From positions 1 through 47,967 of the forward strand of contig JAQTVW010000001.1 of assembly GCA_028706655.1 (NCBI GenBank): a stretch of DNA of 47,967 bases, given 5' to 3'. Source of the stretch: Dehalococcoidales bacterium. GTDB lineage: Bacteria; Chloroflexota; Dehalococcoidia; Dehalococcoidales; RBG-16-60-22. Shown here piece by piece: positions 13,473 through 45,751 of this stretch (position 1 is the stretch's first letter; each line of letters starts with the position of its first letter). The notes beneath the pieces were generated by a model. The model worked only from the letters and a program-made list of their open reading frames with translations. It did no database searches and was not told the DNA's origin. The translations under genes were made by a program, and so were the position numbers.

Positions 13473-14264
13473 GTGACTAATAAATTTCTCACCCGCGAGG
13501 ATGCTCCGATTGAAACCAAGACCTGGGAGGCGCTCGATACGACGATGATGGAAGCCGCCAGGAGTGTCCTGAGCGGGCGGCGTATCCTGGCTATCGAAGG
13601 TCCCTATGGGCTGGGTTTGAAAGCGATTGCCCTGAGCGACCCGGAGACCGACGACAGTCCGGCAGTCAGTCCTGTCCTGCCGCTGGCGCTGATTCACCGG
13701 AACTTCACCGTCGCCAAGCGCGACCTCGCGGCATTTGAACGCGACGGCATTCTGCTGGACACGAAACAGGTGGCGGAAGCGGCACTCGCCTGCGCGGCTG
13801 CGGAAGACGCTCTCGTCTTCAAAGGCACCCGTGAAGTGCGCGGACTGTTGAATGCCAGGGGCAGCAATAGTATCAAGTTGAGCGATTGGGAGCAGGTGGG
13901 CACTGCCGCCGGGGACGTTATCAATGCGGTGACGACGCTGGACAATGCCGGTTTCCACGGTCCCTACGTACTGGCGTTGACGCCCGAGCGCTACAACCTT
14001 TTACTGCGCTACTATCCTTCCGGGAATTTGAGCGAACTGGAGCATATTAAAAAGATTACCGCCGAGGGGGTCATCAAGGCGCCGGCGCTGGAAAGCGGGG
14101 GCGTGCTGCTGGCGGCGGGACGCCAGTTTGCGTCTATCATCGTCGGGCAGGATATGGCGGTCGGCTTCATCGGTCCCGCCGGAGAAAGCCTGGAGTTCTC
14201 GGTATCAGAGAGCCTGTCGCCGTATATCCGCGTTCCGCAGGCGGTCTGCATCCTCGAAGGCTGA
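13473..14264 (+). CDS. family-1 encapsulin shell protein (Linocin M18 / HK97 fold)
   Basis: 263 aa with a GTG start 8 nt after AGGAGG. The N-terminus MTNKFLTREDAPIETKTWEALD and the overall length are typical of T=1 encapsulins. It lies directly downstream of the TP-bearing cargo. Confidence 0.85.
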   Translation: MTNKFLTREDAPIETKTWEALDTTMMEAARSVLSGRRILAIEGPYGLGLKAIALSDPETDDSPAVSPVLPLALIHRNFTVAKRDLAAFERDGILLDTKQVAEAALACAAAEDALVFKGTREVRGLLNARGSNSIKLSDWEQVGTAAGDVINAVTTLDNAGFHGPYVLALTPERYNLLLRYYPSGNLSELEHIKKITAEGVIKAPALESGGVLLAAGRQFASIIVGQDMAVGFIGPAGESLEFSVSESLSPYIRVPQAVCILEG

Positions 14265-14301
14265 AATCCGTAGAAATTGAATAGTTTGGAGGTATCATCC
14301 C

Positions 14302-14787
14302 ATGATGGAAGAATCCCTGGGTAAAGAGTTCCTGGAGGTCGCTATTGAAGTCGAGCGCAACGGACGCGCTTTTTACGAGCGGGTCGCCGGCAAGACCAAA
14401 AGCAAAGAGGGCAGGAATGTCCTGCTGTTGCTGGCGGGTCGGGAGAAAGAGCACGAATCAAACTTCCAGCATATCCTCGGGCACCTGGGCGGCTATGCCG
14501 CTTCGGAGTACACCCGCCAGCGCGGCGATTTTATCCGGGACCTGGCCGGCTCCGTGATATTTATCAGCGAAAAGGCGATGGGCTTGTTGAATAACAAGAC
14601 TCTTACGGATATTGAGGCAGTGGAAGCGGGCATCGGCATGGAGAAGGACTCGATTTTGTTCTATTCGGAGATTATCGGCTTGTTGCCCAAAGCCGACCGT
14701 GACATCGTGGATATCATCATCGGCGAGGAAAAGAAGCACCTGAGCGAACTGGTAAACCTCGCGGACAAATTGCGCAGCGGGACTTAG
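14302..14787 (+). CDS. rubrerythrin/ferritin-like di-iron four-helix-bundle protein (no rubredoxin domain, no targeting peptide)
   Basis: 161 aa with a duplicated E...ExxH pattern (EVERNG...EKEH and GMEKDS...EEKKH). The C-terminus ...ADKLRSGT lacks a G-S/T-L-K/R tail. Confidence 0.7.
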   Translation: MMEESLGKEFLEVAIEVERNGRAFYERVAGKTKSKEGRNVLLLLAGREKEHESNFQHILGHLGGYAASEYTRQRGDFIRDLAGSVIFISEKAMGLLNNKTLTDIEAVEAGIGMEKDSILFYSEIIGLLPKADRDIVDIIIGEEKKHLSELVNLADKLRSGT

Positions 14788-26072: not shown

Positions 26073-26989
26073 TTAGACCAGCGCCAGCATTTTGTCTAAC
26101 GCCTGCTTCGCCCGGACGCGGATGTCTTCCGGTACTGTGATGCGCGGATCCAGTTCTTCCAGCGACCACAGGATTTTGGGCAGGGTAATCAGCTTCATAT
26201 TTGGGCAGACCGCCCGCTTTGAGACAGCATAGAACTTCTTATCGGGATTTTCTTTATCCAGCCGGTGGATGAGTCCGCTCTCGGTGCCGACAATCACTTC
26301 TGTGACGTCCGGTTGTTTGGCGTAACGGAGCATGCCGCCGGTGCTCAGTACTTCATCGGCAAGGGCGATAATTTCCGGGCGGCTTTCGGGATGGACGACG
26401 ACCTTCGCCTGCGGGTGCTCCTGCTTCAGTTTTGCAATGTCTTCGGGCAGGATGCGGGCGTGGGTGGGCAGTAGCCGGGCCAGAGGTGCATTTTTTTACC
26501 GGTCTTCGCCGCGACATATTGTCCCAGGAATTGGTCGGGGACAAACAGGATTTCCCGTTCGCCGAGGCTCTGTACCACTTTCACGGCGTTTGCCGAGGTG
26601 CAGCAGATGTCCGATTCCGCCTTGACGGCGGCAGAGGTATTGACATAGCAGACCACTGCGACGCCGGGAATCTGTTCTTTCATGCGCCTCAACTGTTCCG
26701 GGGTAATCATATCCGCCATCGGGCAGCCGGCGCGGGCATCGGGCAGCAGCACTATTCGTGAGGGATTGAGAATCGCCGCGGTTTCCGCCATGAAATGCAC
26801 GCCGCAGAAAACGATGACGTCCGCGGTGGTTTTTGCCGCCTGCTGACTCAGTTCCAGCGAATCGCCCACAAAATCGGCGATGTCCTGGACTTCGCCTAAC
26901 TGGTAGTTGTGCGCCAGGATGACGGCGTTTTTAGCTTTCTTGAGCTTGAGGATTTTGTCCTGGATGGTCAATTCCTGTTCCAGTGTCAT
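26073..26989 (-). pseudogene. nadA: quinolinate synthase NadA interrupted by a 1-nt deletion (frameshift near 26462-26470)
   Basis: The N-terminal 187-aa ORF (26426..26989) reads ...[17 protein letters not shown]. The true continuation [52 protein letters not shown]... is in another frame and joins ORF 26073..26333. The 917-nt span plus 1 nt gives 306 codons, a normal NadA length. Confidence 0.8.
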
Positions 26990-32408: not shown

Positions 32409-33770
32409 ATGACAAACGAATTCCGCAACCTGCCCGCCGTGGATAAAATTCTCTCCGATGAGCGAATCAGGTCGCTGGAGGGGACTTATCCCCATGAGCT
32501 AATCGTAGACCTCTCCAGAGAGCAGTCGGAGCAGGAGCGCCGCCGGATTGCCGGCGGGAAAAAGCCGCATACAGCGCAAGAGATTGCCGCGGCGGTCTTG
32601 GCGGAAGTGCAGGCTCTGGAAACGCCAAATTTGCGCCCGGTGATTAATGCCACCGGTGTTATCCTGCATACCAACCTGGGACGCGCTCCCCTGAGTCCTG
32701 GAGCGATTGCGGCGATGGATAGGGTCTGCCGTGGCTACTCCAACCTGGAGTTCGACCTGGAAAGCGGCAAGCGCGGCTCGCGGGACAGTCACATCGAGAC
32801 GCTGGTCTGTCGGTTGACCGGCGCCGAAGCGGCGATAGTCGTGAACAATAATGCCGCTGCCGTCCTGCTGGGGCTGAGCGGCCTGGCAAAACGCAAAGAG
32901 GTCATCGTCTCGCGGGGACAGGCGGTGGAAATCGGGGGCGGTTTCCGCATCCCGGATGTCATGCGTCAGAGCGGTGCGAAACTGATTGAAGTGGGGACGA
33001 CCAACTGCACCTACCCCGCCGATTATGAGCAAGCCATCACCGAACGCACTGCGGCACTGTTGCGGGTGCACTCCAGCAATTTCAAGGTCGTCGGCTTTAC
33101 GAATGAGGTTACTATCGAAGAACTGGCGGCGCTGGGCGAAGCGAAGAATGTGCCTGTTTTTGACGACCTCGGCAGCGGCTGTTTCCTGGATACGACAAAA
33201 TATGGTCTCGCTTATGAGCCGATGGTGTCGCAGAGTATTGCCTGCGGCGCGGCGCTGGCGTTTTTCTCCGGAGATAAGCTGGTGGGCGGCCCGCAGGCGG
33301 GCATTATCGCCGGGAAGAAAGAATATATCGATAAACTGCGCAAACACCCGCTGGTAAGGGCGATGCGGATTGACAAGATACGGCTGGCAGGTCTGGCGGC
33401 AACCCTGCTTCATTATTTGAAAGGCGAGGCGGAAAGCAAAGTGCCGGTCTGGCGTATGATTGCCTCACCGATTGCCGATATCGAAAGCCGGGCAAACCGG
33501 TGGGCGGATGCTTTGGGCAAGAGGGCTGAGGTCGTCAGCGGGGAAAGCATGGTGGGCGGCGGCAGCCTGCCCGGCGGGACGCTGCCGACGCGTCTGGTCG
33601 CCATCGGCAGGCAGGATGCCGCGCTGGCCCAGCGTTTGAGCCGGCAGTTGCGGCACCAGGAAGTGCCCGTCATCGGAAGGATTGAACAGGAGACCCTGCT
33701 CCTCGACCCGCGCTCGGTCCTCCCGGAAGAAGACGACATAATATTGCAGTTATTGCGTAATTTACAATAG
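32409..33770 (+). CDS. selA: L-seryl-tRNA(Sec) selenium transferase
   Basis: 453 aa. The N-terminus FRNLPAVDKIL is typical of SelA, followed by INATGVILHTNLGRAP and the PLP-Lys region FSGDKLVGGPQAG. Confidence 0.9.
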   Translation: MTNEFRNLPAVDKILSDERIRSLEGTYPHELIVDLSREQSEQERRRIAGGKKPHTAQEIAAAVLAEVQALETPNLRPVINATGVILHTNLGRAPLSPGAIAAMDRVCRGYSNLEFDLESGKRGSRDSHIETLVCRLTGAEAAIVVNNNAAAVLLGLSGLAKRKEVIVSRGQAVEIGGGFRIPDVMRQSGAKLIEVGTTNCTYPADYEQAITERTAALLRVHSSNFKVVGFTNEVTIEELAALGEAKNVPVFDDLGSGCFLDTTKYGLAYEPMVSQSIACGAALAFFSGDKLVGGPQAGIIAGKKEYIDKLRKHPLVRAMRIDKIRLAGLAATLLHYLKGEAESKVPVWRMIASPIADIESRANRWADALGKRAEVVSGESMVGGGSLPGGTLPTRLVAIGRQDAALAQRLSRQLRHQEVPVIGRIEQETLLLDPRSVLPEEDDIILQLLRNLQ

Positions 33771-33787
33771 CTGAGGAGCATCGCAAG

Positions 33788-34441
33788 ATGACCGGCAGCA
33801 TTAATAAATACTGGGTAAAATGGACCATTGCCTGCGGCGCCGGAGAATTAATTGGTATTGGTGCGGCGGCGGGAATCTGGGTGCTGCATTCGCGGTTCCT
33901 CGGCGAGCCGCAGACAGCGGGGCGGCGTCTGTTGCTGATTGTGATAATGATGCTGGCAGGAATTATCGAAGGGTCGGTTACCGGCGCTTTCCAGTGGGCG
34001 GTGTTGAAGATTAGATTTGCGGACATCAGGGCGCGGAACTGGCTTTTTTACACTGCGCTGGGCGCGGCTGTTGCCTGGCTGCTGGGGATGTTGCCGTCTA
34101 CTTTCATACCGCAGGACGGTGGAGGTATGGCGGATATCGCCGGCTGGCAAATGATATTACTTTCGGCAGCACTCGGCATATTTCTGGGGGCGCTTTTCGG
34201 GGCGGCGCAGTGGCTGGAGCTAAGGAAACATACCCCTGACGCCATTCGCTGGATTCCGGCGAATCTGCTGGCATGGATGGTTGGCTTAGCGGTTATCTTT
34301 GCCGGCGCGGCGATTCCCGGCGAGGAAACGGCTTTGTTTGTAACCATCATTATCGGTGCGGTCTCAGGTCTGCTGGGCGGGCTCTCTGTTGGGGCTGTTA
34401 CCGGGCTGTTTCTCATTAAATTAAATCCTGAGCGAGGTTAG
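33788..34441 (+). CDS. uncharacterised polytopic membrane protein (about 6 TM, internal repeat) embedded in the sel operon
   Basis: 217 aa. It lies 17 nt after the selA stop and 4 nt before the selB start. A Gly-rich helix motif ending in QW..L(K/R) recurs (GSVTGAFQWAVLK, GALFGAAQWLELRK). I recognise no family. Confidence 0.7.
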   Translation: MTGSINKYWVKWTIACGAGELIGIGAAAGIWVLHSRFLGEPQTAGRRLLLIVIMMLAGIIEGSVTGAFQWAVLKIRFADIRARNWLFYTALGAAVAWLLGMLPSTFIPQDGGGMADIAGWQMILLSAALGIFLGALFGAAQWLELRKHTPDAIRWIPANLLAWMVGLAVIFAGAAIPGEETALFVTIIIGAVSGLLGGLSVGAVTGLFLIKLNPERG

Positions 34442-34445
34442 CTTC

Positions 34446-36296
34446 ATGTTCGTTCTGGGTACCGCAGGGCATATCGACCACGGCAAATCGGCGCTGGTGC
34501 AGGCGCTGACTGGCATTGACCCTGACCGCCTCAAGGAAGAAAAAGAGCGCGGCATGACCATCGACCTCGGTTTTGCCTGGCTCAAGCTGCCCGGCGGCAA
34601 GGAAGTCGGCATCGTCGATGTTCCCGGACATGAGCGCTTCATCAAGAACATGCTGGCGGGGGTGGGCGGCATCGACCTGGCGCTGCTGGTGATTGCCGCC
34701 AACGAGGGTGTCATGCCGCAGACGCGCGAGCATCTTGCCATCCTCGATTTGCTCAAGGTTCGCCGTGGTATTATAGTCATTACCAAGAAAGATTTAGTTG
34801 ATGCCGATTTGCTCAGCCTGGTCAAGATGGAAATCGCCGAACTGATGGCGCCCACGACACTCGCGCAGGCGCCGGTCGTCGCCGTTTCCTCAATCACCGG
34901 AGAAGGTATCCCGGAACTGCTGGCGACTATCGATAATTTGTTGGAATCTACCGAGCCGCGCAAAGATTTGGGGAAACCCCGCCTGCCAATCGACCGGATT
35001 TTCACGATTACCGGCGCCGGTACCGTTGTGACCGGCACGCTGATAGACGGCTCTCTCTCGGTAGGACAGGAAGTCGAGATTGTCCCGGCGGGCTTGAAGT
35101 CCCGCCTGCGCGGCTTGCAGACCCACAAGTCCCGTGTCGATTCCGCCCAGCCGGGCACCCGCGTGGCGGCGAATATCGTCGGAGTGTCACTGGAACAATT
35201 AAAGCGCGGTGAAGTCCTCACCACGCCGGGGTGGCTCAAACCGGCGACCATGCTGACGGTAAAACTGCAACTGCTTGCCTACTTGCCACGCCCCTTGCGG
35301 CATAATACCAGTGTCAGCTTTCACAGCGGCGCTGCCGAGACCGTGGCGAAAGTGCGGCTCCTGGAAAGTGAGACACTGAAGCCCGGAGAAGCAGCGTGGG
35401 CTCAGATAGTTTTAGCCGAACCGGTAGCGCTGGTCGGCGGCGACCGCTTTATCATCCGTTCCCCGGTGGAAACGCTGGGCGGCGGCGAGATAATCGAACC
35501 GCATGCCGCGCGTCTGCGGCGTTTCCGCCCGGAGATATTCCGGAGCCTCGCAGCCAGGCAGGCGGGCACTGCCGAGGAAGCGGTACTGGCTTTGTTAGAA
35601 ACCAAGCAGCCGATGATTATCCCCGCTCTCCTGAGCCAGAGTCATCTGCCGGAAGGAGAAGCCCGCACTCTTGTCGATGCTCTCGTCGCGCAGGGAAAAA
35701 TCATCAGTATCGGGCAGGGAGAACAGAGTCTGCTGTTTACTGCGAACGGATGGAGCAACCTGGCAAAGCGGGTGGCTTCCTGGCTGCGGGACTACCACCA
35801 GAAGTTCCCGGCGCGCAGCGGTATGCCCCGCGTCGAGCTTGCCAGCAAGTTGAAACTAGGCGAACCTGCTTCGGCGGCGCTGGGGAAACTGGTAGGACAG
35901 GGTGTTATCGCGGAAGAAAACACGGTCATGCGCCTGCCGGAGCACACGGCGAAACTGACCTCCGCGCAGCAGACCAAAATAGATGCTTTTCTCAGGTCGC
36001 TGGCGCAGCAGCCTTATGCCCCGCCTTCCGACCTGATGCCGGAGCCGGATGTACTGAACCTGCTCATCAGCCAGCGCAAAGTGGTCAAAGTGAGCGACAG
36101 CATCGTCTTCAGCGCTTCTGCCTATGATGCCATGCTGGCGAAGCTGAAAACCTATATCAGGGAGCACGGCAAGGTCACGCTCGGCGAAGTCAGAGACCTT
36201 TTCCAAACGAGCCGCAAGTATGCCCAGGCGTTTTTAGAGTATGTAGACGCCCATAAAATCACCAAACGCGTCGGTGACGACCGGGTGCTGTATTAA
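34446..36296 (+). CDS. selB: selenocysteine-specific translation elongation factor
   Basis: G-domain GHIDHGKS, DVPGHERF and ITKKD. A long C-terminal winged-helix extension is typical of bacterial SelB. Confidence 0.92.
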   Translation: MFVLGTAGHIDHGKSALVQALTGIDPDRLKEEKERGMTIDLGFAWLKLPGGKEVGIVDVPGHERFIKNMLAGVGGIDLALLVIAANEGVMPQTREHLAILDLLKVRRGIIVITKKDLVDADLLSLVKMEIAELMAPTTLAQAPVVAVSSITGEGIPELLATIDNLLESTEPRKDLGKPRLPIDRIFTITGAGTVVTGTLIDGSLSVGQEVEIVPAGLKSRLRGLQTHKSRVDSAQPGTRVAANIVGVSLEQLKRGEVLTTPGWLKPATMLTVKLQLLAYLPRPLRHNTSVSFHSGAAETVAKVRLLESETLKPGEAAWAQIVLAEPVALVGGDRFIIRSPVETLGGGEIIEPHAARLRRFRPEIFRSLAARQAGTAEEAVLALLETKQPMIIPALLSQSHLPEGEARTLVDALVAQGKIISIGQGEQSLLFTANGWSNLAKRVASWLRDYHQKFPARSGMPRVELASKLKLGEPASAALGKLVGQGVIAEENTVMRLPEHTAKLTSAQQTKIDAFLRSLAQQPYAPPSDLMPEPDVLNLLISQRKVVKVSDSIVFSASAYDAMLAKLKTYIREHGKVTLGEVRDLFQTSRKYAQAFLEYVDAHKITKRVGDDRVLY

Positions 36297-42143: not shown

Positions 42144-42341
42144 CTAGCTTTTGACCGGCTTATCGGGAGTTTCCTTGGACTTGTCTTTTTCTTCTTCGTC
42201 CTCGCCGGTCTGTGCTTTCTTAAACAGCCGGATGCCCTTGCCGAGGGCACTGCCTACCTGCGGCAGTTTCCCGACGCCGAAGATAATAAGAATAATCACC
42301 AGGATGAGGGCAATTTCGGGGACTCCCAGACTCCTGAACAT
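42144..42341 (-). CDS. tatA: twin-arginine translocase TatA/E
   Basis: MFRSLGVPEIALILVIILIIFGVGKLPQVGSALGKGIRLFKKA. The ATG at 42341 lies 7 nt after AGGAGG. Confidence 0.88.
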   Translation of the reverse strand: MFRSLGVPEIALILVIILIIFGVGKLPQVGSALGKGIRLFKKAQTGEDEEEKDKSKETPDKPVKS

Positions 42342-42378
42342 GACGATCCCTCCTGATTTGTTGCCTAATGTTACCATA

Positions 42379-42408
42379 ATTATACCTTTGCTTTGCTGGA
42401 AAGTCTAA
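42379..42408 (-). promoter_or_regulatory. sigma-70-like promoter of the tat operon
   Basis: The minus strand reads TTAGAC, an 18-nt spacer and TATAAT. Confidence 0.45.
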
Positions 42409-42483
42409 CGGGTAAAGTAACCTCATGGGAATTGCTAGACTCTTTAATGTTTCAGAGATTGCAGGATTGTTAGCGTTTACCTA

Positions 42484-42512
42484 TAGACAAATGCAAAAAA
42501 CAGGGATATAAT
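42484..42512 (+). promoter_or_regulatory. sigma-70-like promoter of the tail-tube-like gene
   Basis: TAGACA (42484-42489), a 17-nt spacer and TATAAT (42507-42512). Confidence 0.55.
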
Positions 42513-42561
42513 CGCTATTGAATAATAACGCTAAGTGAGAAGTCATAAGGGAGAGAATGCC

Positions 42562-43122
42562 ATGACGAGGAAGTTATTGTCCACGAGAAAAGTATACATT
42601 ATCATAGCTGCGGTTGTGTTGTTGGTTTGTACTTCATTATTACTCCCGAAGTTCACTTCCCAGGAAGATATCGTCTATGCGGCAACGAAAGACGCTTCGC
42701 TGATTGATTATACTGTTGTTGTTAAAGATGAGCACAACGCTCTGCTGGGTACTTTCCTGACGGTCTCCAACATCAGCTCCGTAACCGATGTTATTGAATA
42801 CCAGGACGGCGAGGACAGAATACTCAGAAAAAGACCCGGCATGACGAGATATCCGAATGTTATCCTCGAGCGCGCTCTGTCCACCGAAAATGATGCAATG
42901 TGGGCGTGGCGACAGACTATTTTAATGGGCAAACCGGAACGGCACTCGCTGAGCATTGAGATTTATAGTAAAAAAGATTTAAATACCCCCCTGGTTAAGT
43001 ATATTCTCGAATACTGCTGGCCGAGTAAGGTTATTCTTCCTGAGTTAAGGTCAGATAGCAAGGGAATTCCGATTGAACAGTGGGAGATTGCCTGCGAAAG
43101 TTTCCAGCGGGTAGTCCCATAA
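42562..43122 (+). CDS. membrane-anchored phage tail tube-like protein (T4 gp19 / 'conserved hypothetical phage tail region protein' family domain)
   Basis: The ATG at 42562 follows an AAGGGAGAG SD. The N-terminal anchor is MTRKLLSTRKVYIIIAAVVLLVCTSLLL. The following domain is FLTVSNISSVTDVIEYQDGEDRILRKRPGMTRYPNVILERAL..NDAMWAWRQ...GKPERHSLSIEIY...ILEYCWPSKVILPEL...IEQWEIACESFQRV. It follows the gp19/Afp1/Pvc1-type tube pattern F.evsGL..e.evieYreG.....klPG...y.nvtLkRG....lw.W....G...r....i.l.....w.l.naWP.k...p.L....n.vaiE.lela.e. The gene is visibly more AT-rich than its flanks. Confidence 0.7.
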   Translation: MTRKLLSTRKVYIIIAAVVLLVCTSLLLPKFTSQEDIVYAATKDASLIDYTVVVKDEHNALLGTFLTVSNISSVTDVIEYQDGEDRILRKRPGMTRYPNVILERALSTENDAMWAWRQTILMGKPERHSLSIEIYSKKDLNTPLVKYILEYCWPSKVILPELRSDSKGIPIEQWEIACESFQRVVP

Positions 43123-43200
43123 GGTAATCGCACAACACGAGTTTCGGATTAGATAGTTGCGATGGCTCAGACTTTGATTTGAGTGTTTGCTCTGTGTAGT

Positions 43201-43671
43201 TTAGCTCTCTCTAGCCTCAATCTCTCGGAGCACCGCTTTTACTATCTCCGGCAGCTTCTCCTTGACTTCGGGGGAAAGCTCCATGCCCCAATCGATTTCC
43301 TTCGGCTCGACGCCGATGATGACAGTCTCTGCGGGCGCGGTCTTTGCCAGTCGCATCGTCTGGAGGCTCTCTTTGACGCCGAACTCGTGCAGTGAGAGCA
43401 GCCGGCCTGCCCGCGGGTCGAGGTCATCCGGCGTAAAACGGTAAATCGCCCCCGGCGCGCCGCCCGCCCGTGCCGCATCGATGATTATCAGTTTATCTCC
43501 CGCCCGCGAGAGGGCAATCAGGTCCGGCGAAGTACCGCCATCGATAATTGTGACTTCCTGCGGCAGAGCTAACTCCTGCAAGGCTTGAACGGCATGGATG
43601 CCCACGCCATCATCTTTCATGAGCAGGTTGCCCACGCCGATAACCACGCAGCGGTTGGCAGTCTTTTTCAT
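43201..43671 (-). CDS. [NiFe]-hydrogenase maturation endopeptidase (HyaD/HybD/HycI family)
   Basis: VIGVGNLLMKDDGVGIHAV ... IIDGGT ... LIIIDA ... SLHEFG. Confidence 0.88.
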   Translation of the reverse strand: MKKTANRCVVIGVGNLLMKDDGVGIHAVQALQELALPQEVTIIDGGTSPDLIALSRAGDKLIIIDAARAGGAPGAIYRFTPDDLDPRAGRLLSLHEFGVKESLQTMRLAKTAPAETVIIGVEPKEIDWGMELSPEVKEKLPEIVKAVLREIEARES

Positions 43672-43676
43672 CTCTG

Positions 43677-44667
43677 TCAGCAGATGCGCGGCAGCAGCTC
43701 GCCGACGGGCATATCGATGATTCGTGATGAGCCGAAGCGCGTCTGCATGACCACCCGCCCCGGGTGTTCCTTGACTACCTCGCCGATGACGAGGGCATCT
43801 TTACCATACTTGTGCTGCTTCATTTTCGCCAGTATCTTATCGGCATCCTGCGGCGCAGCCACGGCGACCAGCTTGCCCTCATTGGCGATGTGCAGCGGGT
43901 CGAAGCCGAGCAGTTCGCAGGCGGCGGCAACCGCTTTGGCGACCGGTATGCTGGTTTCCGCTATTCTGACGCCGACCTTTGATTGCAGGGCAAAATCGTT
44001 TAGTGTAGTCGCCAGACCGCCGCGGGTGGGGTCGCGCAGGCAGCGGATATTTTTCGAGACTGCCAGCATCTCTGACACCAGTCCGTTCAGCGGGGCGCAA
44101 TCACTTCTCACCGGCGATTCAAACCGCAAGCCTTCCCGCTGGCTCAGTACGGCGATGCCGTGGTCGCCGATATTGCCGCTGAGGATAATCTTGTCACCGG
44201 GACGGGCATTCGCCGCTGAAATATCGACTCCCTCAGGGACACTGCCCACGCCCGCGGTATTGATGAACAGCTTGTCCGCCTGTCCCTGGTTGACCACCTT
44301 GGTGTCTCCGGTGACAATCCTGACGCCGGCTTCTGATGCTGACGTGCAAATCGATTGGATTATATTTTTCAATTCAGCGAAGGACAACCCTTCTTCGATA
44401 ATCAGGGCAAGGCTCAGATATTTGGGGACAGCGCCGCTCATGGCGAGGTCGTTGACCGTGCCGCAGACCGCCAGCTTGCCGATATCGCCGCCGGGGAAGA
44501 AAATCGGCTTGACGACAAAGCTATCGGTGGTAAAGGCGAGCCGGCCGCCCATCTCGAACACCGCGCAGTCGTCCATCCGGTTCAGAATGGGATTGGCAAG
44601 GGGCGAGAGTAGTTCGACAATCAAATCATGGCTGAGCTTGCCGCCGCTGCCGTGCGCCAGCAGAATT

Positions 44668-44678
<11 letters not shown>
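43677..44678 (-). CDS. hypE: hydrogenase expression/formation protein HypE
   Basis: The ATG at 44678 (MEDKILLAHGSGG) overlaps the hypD stop by 11 nt. It has a PurM-like fold and the C-terminal PRIC motif. Confidence 0.92.

Positions 44679-45751
<1,073 letters not shown>

Follow-up and report, generated by a model that had tools for sequence, protein, structure and literature searches.

The tube gene and its product

The gene analysed here lies on a 47,967-bp contig of a Dehalococcoidales metagenome-assembled genome (MAG), and this whole contig is the stretch of DNA referred to below as the window. Listed by NCBI under the product name 'phage tail protein', it encodes a protein of 186 amino acids in which a complete tail-tube domain, of the type that forms the inner tube of contractile injection systems (CIS), follows a hydrophobic N-terminus predicted to anchor it in the membrane. 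The tube gene is bordered upstream by tatC and two tatA/B genes of the twin-arginine translocation (Tat) system and downstream by hycI, hypE, hypD and hypF, all of them on the opposite strand (Table 1). Its longest open reading frame (ORF) runs from 42535 to 43122 (+). Inspection of the sequence found no ribosome-binding site before the alternative GTG start at 42535; the ATG at 42562, which yields the 186-residue product, is preceded by a good Shine-Dalgarno sequence and, further upstream, by a promoter that agrees with the consensus at 11 of 12 positions. The same protein, identical in sequence, was assembled in an independent Logan run, and the tube gene is predicted to be real and expressible.

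Table 1. The tube gene, the segments it encodes and the flanking features in the window
Feature	Position	Strand	Basis or remark
Tube gene coding sequence, 186 amino acids + stop	42562..43122	+	Predicted exported or anchored tube-fold protein; ORF call, profile matches, model
Sigma-70-type promoter of tube gene	42484..42512	+	-35 TAGACA 42484-42489, 17-nt spacer, -10 TATAAT 42507-42512
Shine-Dalgarno GGGAGAG	42549..42555	+	6-nt spacer to ATG; read from sequence
n-region MTRKLLSTRK, residues 1-10, net +4	42562..42591	+	Charge count
Predicted hydrophobic signal anchor VYIIIAAVVLLVCTSLLLP, residues 11-29	42592..42648	+	19-residue uncharged run; helix 8-26 in AlphaFold2 model
Complete tail-tube (gp19/Cis1-like) beta fold, residues 47-184	42700..43113	+	Profiles, PDB sequence matches, AlphaFold2, Foldseek
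tatA/E-type gene, flanking host gene	42144..42377	-	Pfam scan
Divergent promoter-like site TAGACT-17-TATAAT	42379..42407	-	Would serve tatA; not part of inserted gene
hycI-type hydrogenase maturation protease, flanking host gene	43201..43671	-	Convergent with tube gene
Low-GC (43%) segment, 823 bp, tatA to hycI	42378..43200		About 140-bp spacer in related contigs; one-gene insertion

The Pfam family PF06841 (Phage_T4_gp19) matches residues 62-181 (42745-43104) with E = 4.8e-19 and 69 bits (gathering score 28.2), and TIGR02241 reaches 67.4 bits, against a cut-off of 62.4; the tail-tube match in PHROGs is only marginal, and the Hcp family is absent from the Pfam and NCBIfam matches. The nearest PDB sequences are the AlgoCIS tube of Algoriphagus (7adz, 5.5e-13) and Anabaena All3324 (7b5h, 1.6e-12), with further matches to Afp1 (9e-7) and Pvc1 (3e-4). 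An AlphaFold2 monomer model, built from an alignment of 116 sequences, has a mean predicted local distance difference test (pLDDT) score of 84.1; it shows a helix at residues 8-26, then a linker of low confidence in which residues 34-42 form a short helix, and finally, over residues 50-184, a beta domain whose pLDDT is 85-95. When this model was compared with the PDB using Foldseek, CIS tube proteins came out on top (E about 1e-10, target-normalised template modelling (TM) score 0.78-0.82 for Cis1, Pvc1 and Afp1), cyanophage and T4 tubes next, and Hcp proteins last. All the residues that are near-invariant across the family (E79, G83, G93, W116, W153, P154, E172 and E179) are kept, and so is the long conserved hairpin YQDGEDRILRKRPG. 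On account of the profile scores, the PDB matches, the model and the structural matches, we conclude that the protein, as judged from its sequence and predicted structure, is a bona fide and complete CIS-type tube domain.

The N-terminus is what sets this protein apart. Its n-region is followed by an uncharged run of 19 residues and then by 15 residues with a net acidic charge. Inspection of the sequence that links the hydrophobic segment to the tube domain showed no ATG, GTG or TTG, so that a later-start call cannot remove the N-terminus. The run ends in LLLP/KF, where the slash marks its end, and carries no AXA-type cleavage motif; in most relatives it ends in small-residue motifs such as AAA/K, VHA/A, AMA/S or AQA/Q. 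Because the motif is lacking, the segment looks like an uncleaved signal anchor, for which the positive-inside rule predicts an N-in/C-out orientation. With this n-region, a 19-residue hydrophobic helix and no start downstream of it, the product does not read as a soluble, signal-less cytoplasmic subunit. The twin-arginine motif (S/T-R-R-x-F-L-K) is absent as well: MTRKLLSTRK contains no RR pair and leads into a very hydrophobic 19-mer. Export as a Tat substrate through the adjoining tatABC genes was considered and rejected, given that the motif is missing, that the insertion site is incidental and that related contigs have the tat genes without a tube gene; the adjacency stems from the site of insertion and is not functional evidence. 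A sequence-only reading of this locus had proposed both a tube domain of the gp19/Afp1/Pvc1 type and an N-terminal hydrophobic anchor. The former was confirmed by two profiles above their curated cut-offs and by a model closest to CIS tubes, the latter by charge, hydrophobicity and the modelled helix, and the mis-called start that might have explained the anchor away finds no start codon to begin from.

Compared with the inner tubes of CIS and extracellular CIS (eCIS), represented by Cis1 (7adz), All3324 (7b5h), Afp1 (6rao) and Pvc1 (6j0b), the tube protein belongs to the same Pfam and TIGRFAM family, has 18-27% identity and shares the fold over about 140 residues together with the conserved hairpin and the WP motif. 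Nevertheless, it differs from them in three respects: i) it has a 45-residue N-terminal extension with a predicted transmembrane anchor, ii) it lies far under the NCBIfam equivalog cut-offs for CIS1_fam (NF053769, 27.3 bits against 220) and CIS5_fam (NF053770, 44.5 bits against 260), and iii) its gene has no sheath, baseplate, spike or Pvc16 gene nearby and was inserted singly among housekeeping genes. Three features that define a CIS tube subunit at work, namely a score at equivalog level, the surrounding genes and a signal-less presence in the cytoplasm, thus all appear from the sequence to be missing here. The tubes of T4, whose gp19 gave the Pfam family its name, and of other myophages are of the same superfamily and fold (Foldseek matches 9mkb, 8kee and others, E 1e-8 to 1e-6), but they match more weakly than the CIS proteins do, and the tube gene has no phage context. 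Hcp of the secretion system of type VI (T6SS) is a related ring-forming tube fold (TM 0.5-0.6) without detectable sequence similarity to the tube protein. Hcp proteins with C-terminal effector extensions provide a precedent for a tube domain joined to other modules; Hcp leaves the cell through the T6SS itself and without Sec or Tat signals.

Exported relatives and their surroundings

A word-indexed search of 5.8 billion clusters returned the tube protein itself as its sole match, and phmmer, run exhaustively against 1.84 billion cluster representatives, returned 1009 relatives with E <= 1e-3. Among the best 150 phmmer matches there are 125 single-domain proteins, and in 63 of these the N-terminus is extended by 20-60 residues that comprise a positive n-region and a hydrophobic run. 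Most such N-termini resemble classical cleavable signal peptides, a few appear anchor-like as in the tube protein, and RRxFLK-like Tat motifs occur in three relatives (P0054, P0097 and P0113). The nearest exported relatives are all metagenome singletons. Representative exported gp19-like proteins (P0181, P0251, P0233, the Chloroflexota protein of L084, the tandem P0151, P0064, P0118 and P0115) show the same combination of signal or anchor and complete tube domain, are likewise encoded by stand-alone genes without CIS neighbours and are 25-42% identical to the tube protein, from which they differ in that most have a cleavable AXA-type signal peptide. E79, G83, G93, W116, P154 and E172 are near-invariant in exported and signal-less proteins alike. 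Cysteine columns and counts did not differ clearly between the exported and the CIS-linked sets, and a disulfide signature was dropped as a marker of export. When the signal trait was mapped on a rough neighbour-joining tree, it proved clustered, with 27 Fitch steps where shuffled labels needed about 57.

The gene neighbourhoods tell the same two groups apart. At 12 of 12 signal-bearing loci no sheath, Pvc16_N, gp25 or VgrG gene was found within the available flanks of up to 10 kb; these are L002 (P0181), L003 (P0231 and a signal-bearing paralogue), L031 (Polyangiaceae), L070 (Endomicrobiales), L076 (Spirochaetota), L082 (Planctomycetia), L083 (Phycisphaerae, with two tube domains), L084 (Chloroflexota), L085 (Omnitrophota), L167, L168 and L169, and the genes around them, of housekeeping or envelope-polysaccharide type, are unrelated and include no conserved neighbour. 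In contrast, signal-less relatives commonly stand in canonical eCIS operons: P0161 lies in one with the order Pvc16_N, sheath, tube, DUF6760, sheath, tube, LysM-tube, VgrG, gp25 and Baseplate_J, and a genome scan found 28 signal-less loci with a sheath gene about 1.1 kb upstream. As a separate observation, lspA, the gene for lipoprotein signal peptidase (Peptidase_A8), directly follows one or two signal-bearing tube paralogues in Myxococcota (L003 1210-2825, L004 50-1665, L031 9806-10968). It was not used as a functional link for L003 and L031: only P0231 has a possible lipobox (LAAGC), and the L031 protein has no cysteine.

Several relatives combine the tube domain with modules of extracellular type. 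P0064 has collagen triple-helix repeats followed by two tube domains, P0069 and P0118 have Kazal inhibitor domains, P0142 has FG-GAP repeats, and in P0115 a tube domain with a transmembrane anchor is followed by immunoglobulin-like (Ig-like), invasin and DUF1573 domains. Signal-bearing tandem tube-tube fusions are found in P0004, P0005, P0014, P0108, P0144 and P0151. A trimeric collagen stalk with two tube domains per chain would bring together six of them, the number needed for a tube ring, which is suggestive only. Two very long metagenome proteins, P0002 (5355 amino acids) and P0009 (5053 amino acids), hold 5-6 repeats of the hairpin motif EYQDGDDxILRKRPGRTKYSNITLKRG alone, and P0002 has in addition an EF-Tu-like stretch KERGITINTSHVEY and the metalloprotease-like motif HELAHVVQQ; both resemble odd mosaics of conserved peptide segments. 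They were not counted as exported tube domains because only the hairpin, and not a whole domain, is repeated.

No link of this subfamily to phages or defence systems emerged. A tblastn search of 50,697 phage records with the tube protein gave no match, IMG/VR gave only two matches to the subfamily, both signal-less, and the idea of a phage moron was dropped for want of a phage-genome match. PADLOC-DB had no match for the tube protein or for three exported relatives, and neither a defence island nor a prophage was seen around the tube gene or at the exported loci examined. A full-text literature search, whose incomplete coverage leaves an earlier description possible, found no published account of signal-bearing or anchored tube homologues; one secretome paper that mentions Phage_T4_gp19 was set aside as a prior description, as it concerns a signal-less protein. 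The exported tube-like proteins are apparently a widespread and undescribed group.

The insertion site and the rest of the contig

The tube gene is a strong compositional outlier, with a G+C content (GC) of 0.453 against a mean of 0.570 +/- 0.026 for the other 38 genes of the contig (z = -4.5) and a GC at third codon positions of 0.524 against 0.691 +/- 0.042 (z = -4.0). To place it, metagenome contigs were searched with HycI and the Hyp, HycI and Tat proteins of the window were mapped onto the matches. In L097, L100 and L103, whose HycI is 61-65% identical, hypD-hypE-hycI-tatA-tatA-tatC form a co-oriented, uninterrupted block, in which hycI and tatA are separated by about 140 bp that hold an ATAGACA-N17-TATAAT promoter for tatA and no tube gene; across 80 HycI loci a tube gene was found in none. 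In the window the corresponding distance is 823 bp, and the extra DNA consists of the tube gene with its own promoter, on the strand opposite to the hyp/tat block. Because of this difference in length the tube gene is, on the evidence of sequence, a horizontally acquired one-gene insertion. No direct repeats flank the insert, where just two weak inverted repeats were seen, and it has no integrase and no Rfam RNA match. The form TAGACA or TAGACT-N17-TATAAT recurs upstream of tatA in the Dehalococcoidia-like contigs (L097 1700-1840, L100 6450-6590 and L103 6450-6590) and at both promoter sites of the window. As the same form precedes tatA in related contigs and the tube gene here, TAGACA may be the usual -35 hexamer of this lineage.

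Pfam scans, which also covered the other large ORFs, detected no sheath, baseplate (gp25, Baseplate_J), spike (VgrG/PAAR), Pvc16/DUF4255, terminase or integrase gene on the contig, local hidden Markov models of sheath, Pvc16_N, gp25 and VgrG built from eCIS loci had no match in the window, and no T6SS gene is present in it. The large ORFs that were scanned are housekeeping genes, among them ABC/MacB transporters, ETF/ETF-QO, ribonucleotide reductase, thiolase, trpBA, tgt, selA/selB and MscS. What the sequence-only reading had said of the locus, namely an AT-rich gene with a near-consensus promoter of its own, set between tat and hydrogenase-maturation genes and without any other phage or eCIS gene in 48 kb, stands in every part.

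Some further features of the contig deserve mention. Apart from the tube gene, the only virus-derived fold is an encapsulin shell protein (Linocin_M18, E = 1e-69), whose gene is directly followed by a rubrerythrin-like ORF that is probably its cargo (13473-14787, +). nadA is seemingly split (26073-26989, -): ORF 26426-26989 covers NadA profile positions 2-166 of 295 and the C-terminal part is a separate ORF (26073-26333), which points either to a frameshift, and so a pseudogene, or to an assembly error. selA and selB (32409-36296, +) are parted by an unannotated ORF of 217 amino acids (33788-34441) with a hydrophobic N-terminal stretch and no Pfam match. Finally, the longest hypE ORF (43677-44885, -) begins with TTG and overlaps hypD by about 220 bp; since the AIRS domains do not set in until about residue 104, translation probably begins further downstream.

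A tube protein outside the contractile machine

What could a tube protein do without a contractile machine? One possible explanation, towards which we lean with modest confidence, is that an exported, membrane-tethered tube-fold protein forms rings that serve as a scaffold of the envelope. A single gene with its own promoter arrived by horizontal transfer in the short spacer of the conserved hypD-hypE-hycI-tatA-tatA-tatC block. Its product would enter the cytoplasmic membrane by the SRP/Sec route (SRP, signal recognition particle) through the uncleaved N-terminal signal anchor, so that the complete tube domain would come to lie on the outer face of the membrane. There it would self-assemble to hexamers in ring form, which might also build short stacks; six transmembrane helices would tether each ring, and these rings would act as an envelope or surface scaffold and not as the inner tube of an injection device. 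The protein would be one member of a clade, spread widely across phyla but sampled sparsely, of tube domains of the CIS type that left the contractile machine, took up Sec, Tat-like or anchor N-termini and are encoded by genes standing alone. That the fold had been exapted to a role in the cell envelope was already suggested by the sequence-only reading, and this suggestion has gained ground from the signal peptides of relatives, from their stand-alone loci and extracellular-type fusions and from the contrast with signal-less relatives in eCIS operons. The tube protein probably forms rings; oligomeric state and role are where doubt is greatest.

A number of observations weigh against an envelope scaffold. 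Topology and ring formation are both features that we infer. The window covers one contig of 48 kb, and a CIS locus could lie on other contigs of the MAG. An all-against-all ORF comparison around 10 signal-bearing loci revealed no conserved neighbour, lspA at L003 and L031 being the only feature shared, and no functional partner. The 78-nt 3' spacer of the tube gene contains no intrinsic terminator or significant hairpin (z = -0.6). The rough tree does not make the signal trait monophyletic and puts the tube protein on a long branch; since, moreover, none of the 1.84 billion representatives other than itself exceeds 50% identity to it, the protein could be drifting. Finally, about 35 nearly identical tube genes of Myxococcales-type MAGs, encoding signal-less proteins of 143 amino acids (MPNRRxFDHIGNFNFK...), are separated from any sheath gene by more than 10 kb, so that the lack of a nearby sheath is not exclusive to exported forms. 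These Myxococcales genes (L011, L012, L019-L021, L024, L025, L028, L032-L034, L036, L037, L040-L042, L046-L051, L053 and L056-L060) sometimes occur twice per genome and have no clearly conserved neighbour; in marine Myxococcota MAGs, such tube genes were reported to reach the highest transcription of all genes (PMC11937823).

The drift just mentioned leads to the view that the gene is a decaying or neutral fragment, acquired horizontally and functionless in its host, to which its composition, its singleton status among 5.8 billion clusters, its long branch and its absence from the syntenic site of related contigs would all be congenial. We regard this as unlikely: the frame is intact, every family-wide near-invariant residue is kept, the model is confident, a near-consensus promoter of the tatA type known from related contigs is combined with a good Shine-Dalgarno sequence, and the identical protein came from an independent Logan run. 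It is far less probable still that the protein is an ordinary Cis1/Afp1-like inner-tube subunit of a CIS or prophage tail encoded on another contig, with a hydrophobic N-terminus that is an artefact or irrelevant. Its best sequence and structure matches are indeed genuine CIS tube proteins, the window covers a single contig, and Myxococcales MAGs do have extra tube copies far from sheath genes. Nevertheless, the good Shine-Dalgarno sequence before ATG 42562 and the lack of any start between helix and tube domain leave the N-terminus in place, the CIS1 and CIS5 scores are far too low, the gene is a single low-GC insertion, and its N-terminal architecture recurs in relatives from different phyla, with no adjoining CIS gene among the loci examined. 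CIS assembly, in eCIS as in the T6SS, takes place in the cytoplasm, and therefore a subunit that is exported or anchored could not join it.

Two other explanations accept export and differ from a ring-shaped scaffold in what the domain does outside. An anchored tube mimic might be a surface decoy that caps or mis-engages the tube tip of an incoming contractile phage tail or tailocin, in the manner of superinfection exclusion. Known exclusion factors that act at this same place, such as Ltp, Llp and T4 Imm/Sp, are also small proteins with an anchor or lipoproteins, the predicted site is where phage tails act, and a single horizontally acquired gene with a strong promoter of its own, sporadic in distribution and variable in genomic position, would suit such a part. 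However, PADLOC gave no match, the context is neither defence island nor prophage, the subfamily is essentially absent from phage genomes, and the collagen, Ig-like, FG-GAP and Kazal fusions indicate a structural or adhesive role, all of which makes a decoy decidedly improbable. The domain could also be an exported monomeric module for binding or carrying, without any ring, and Ig-like, FG-GAP and Kazal fusions are typical of monomeric surface proteins too; ring assembly of the tube protein is, after all, our own deduction. But the fold is retained in its entirety, long conserved hairpin included, a six-fold geometry suits the tandem-domain and collagen-stalk versions, and isolated tube and Hcp proteins generally form hexamers. 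A monomer therefore seems rather unlikely.

The reading of an anchored ring on the cell envelope can be extended from this gene to its relatives. Phage-tail parts are known to have been reused as whole machines, as in the T6SS, eCIS and tailocins. It is conceivable, although we stop short of favouring it, that tube proteins of the CIS lineage were domesticated once again, as a sheath-independent family exported by Sec or Tat that forms rings or short tubes outside the membrane or on the cell surface, either alone or as the oligomerising base of proteins bearing collagen, Ig-like, FG-GAP or Kazal domains. Such a family would extend over Chloroflexota, Planctomycetota, Spirochaetota, Omnitrophota, Endomicrobiales and Myxococcota, a range that we put forward just as tentatively, and the Dehalococcoidales gene would be a recently transferred, anchored member. 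If true, this would be a different kind of domestication, in which a tube subunit freed of its machine and provided with a general-secretion signal spread as a single gene, and a self-assembling ring was turned into an extracellular building block. A practical consequence is that annotation of such genes as 'phage tail protein' inflates prophage and eCIS calls in MAGs. The family-level pattern of exported, CIS-independent tube domains is of more interest than the single gene, and the exported clade offers a concrete, testable set for post-Sec assembly of tube rings and for a role in the envelope. Cultured Dehalococcoides have an S-layer-type envelope and not a typical cell wall, and for the Dehalococcoidia a tethered tube ring would bear on the biology of that envelope.

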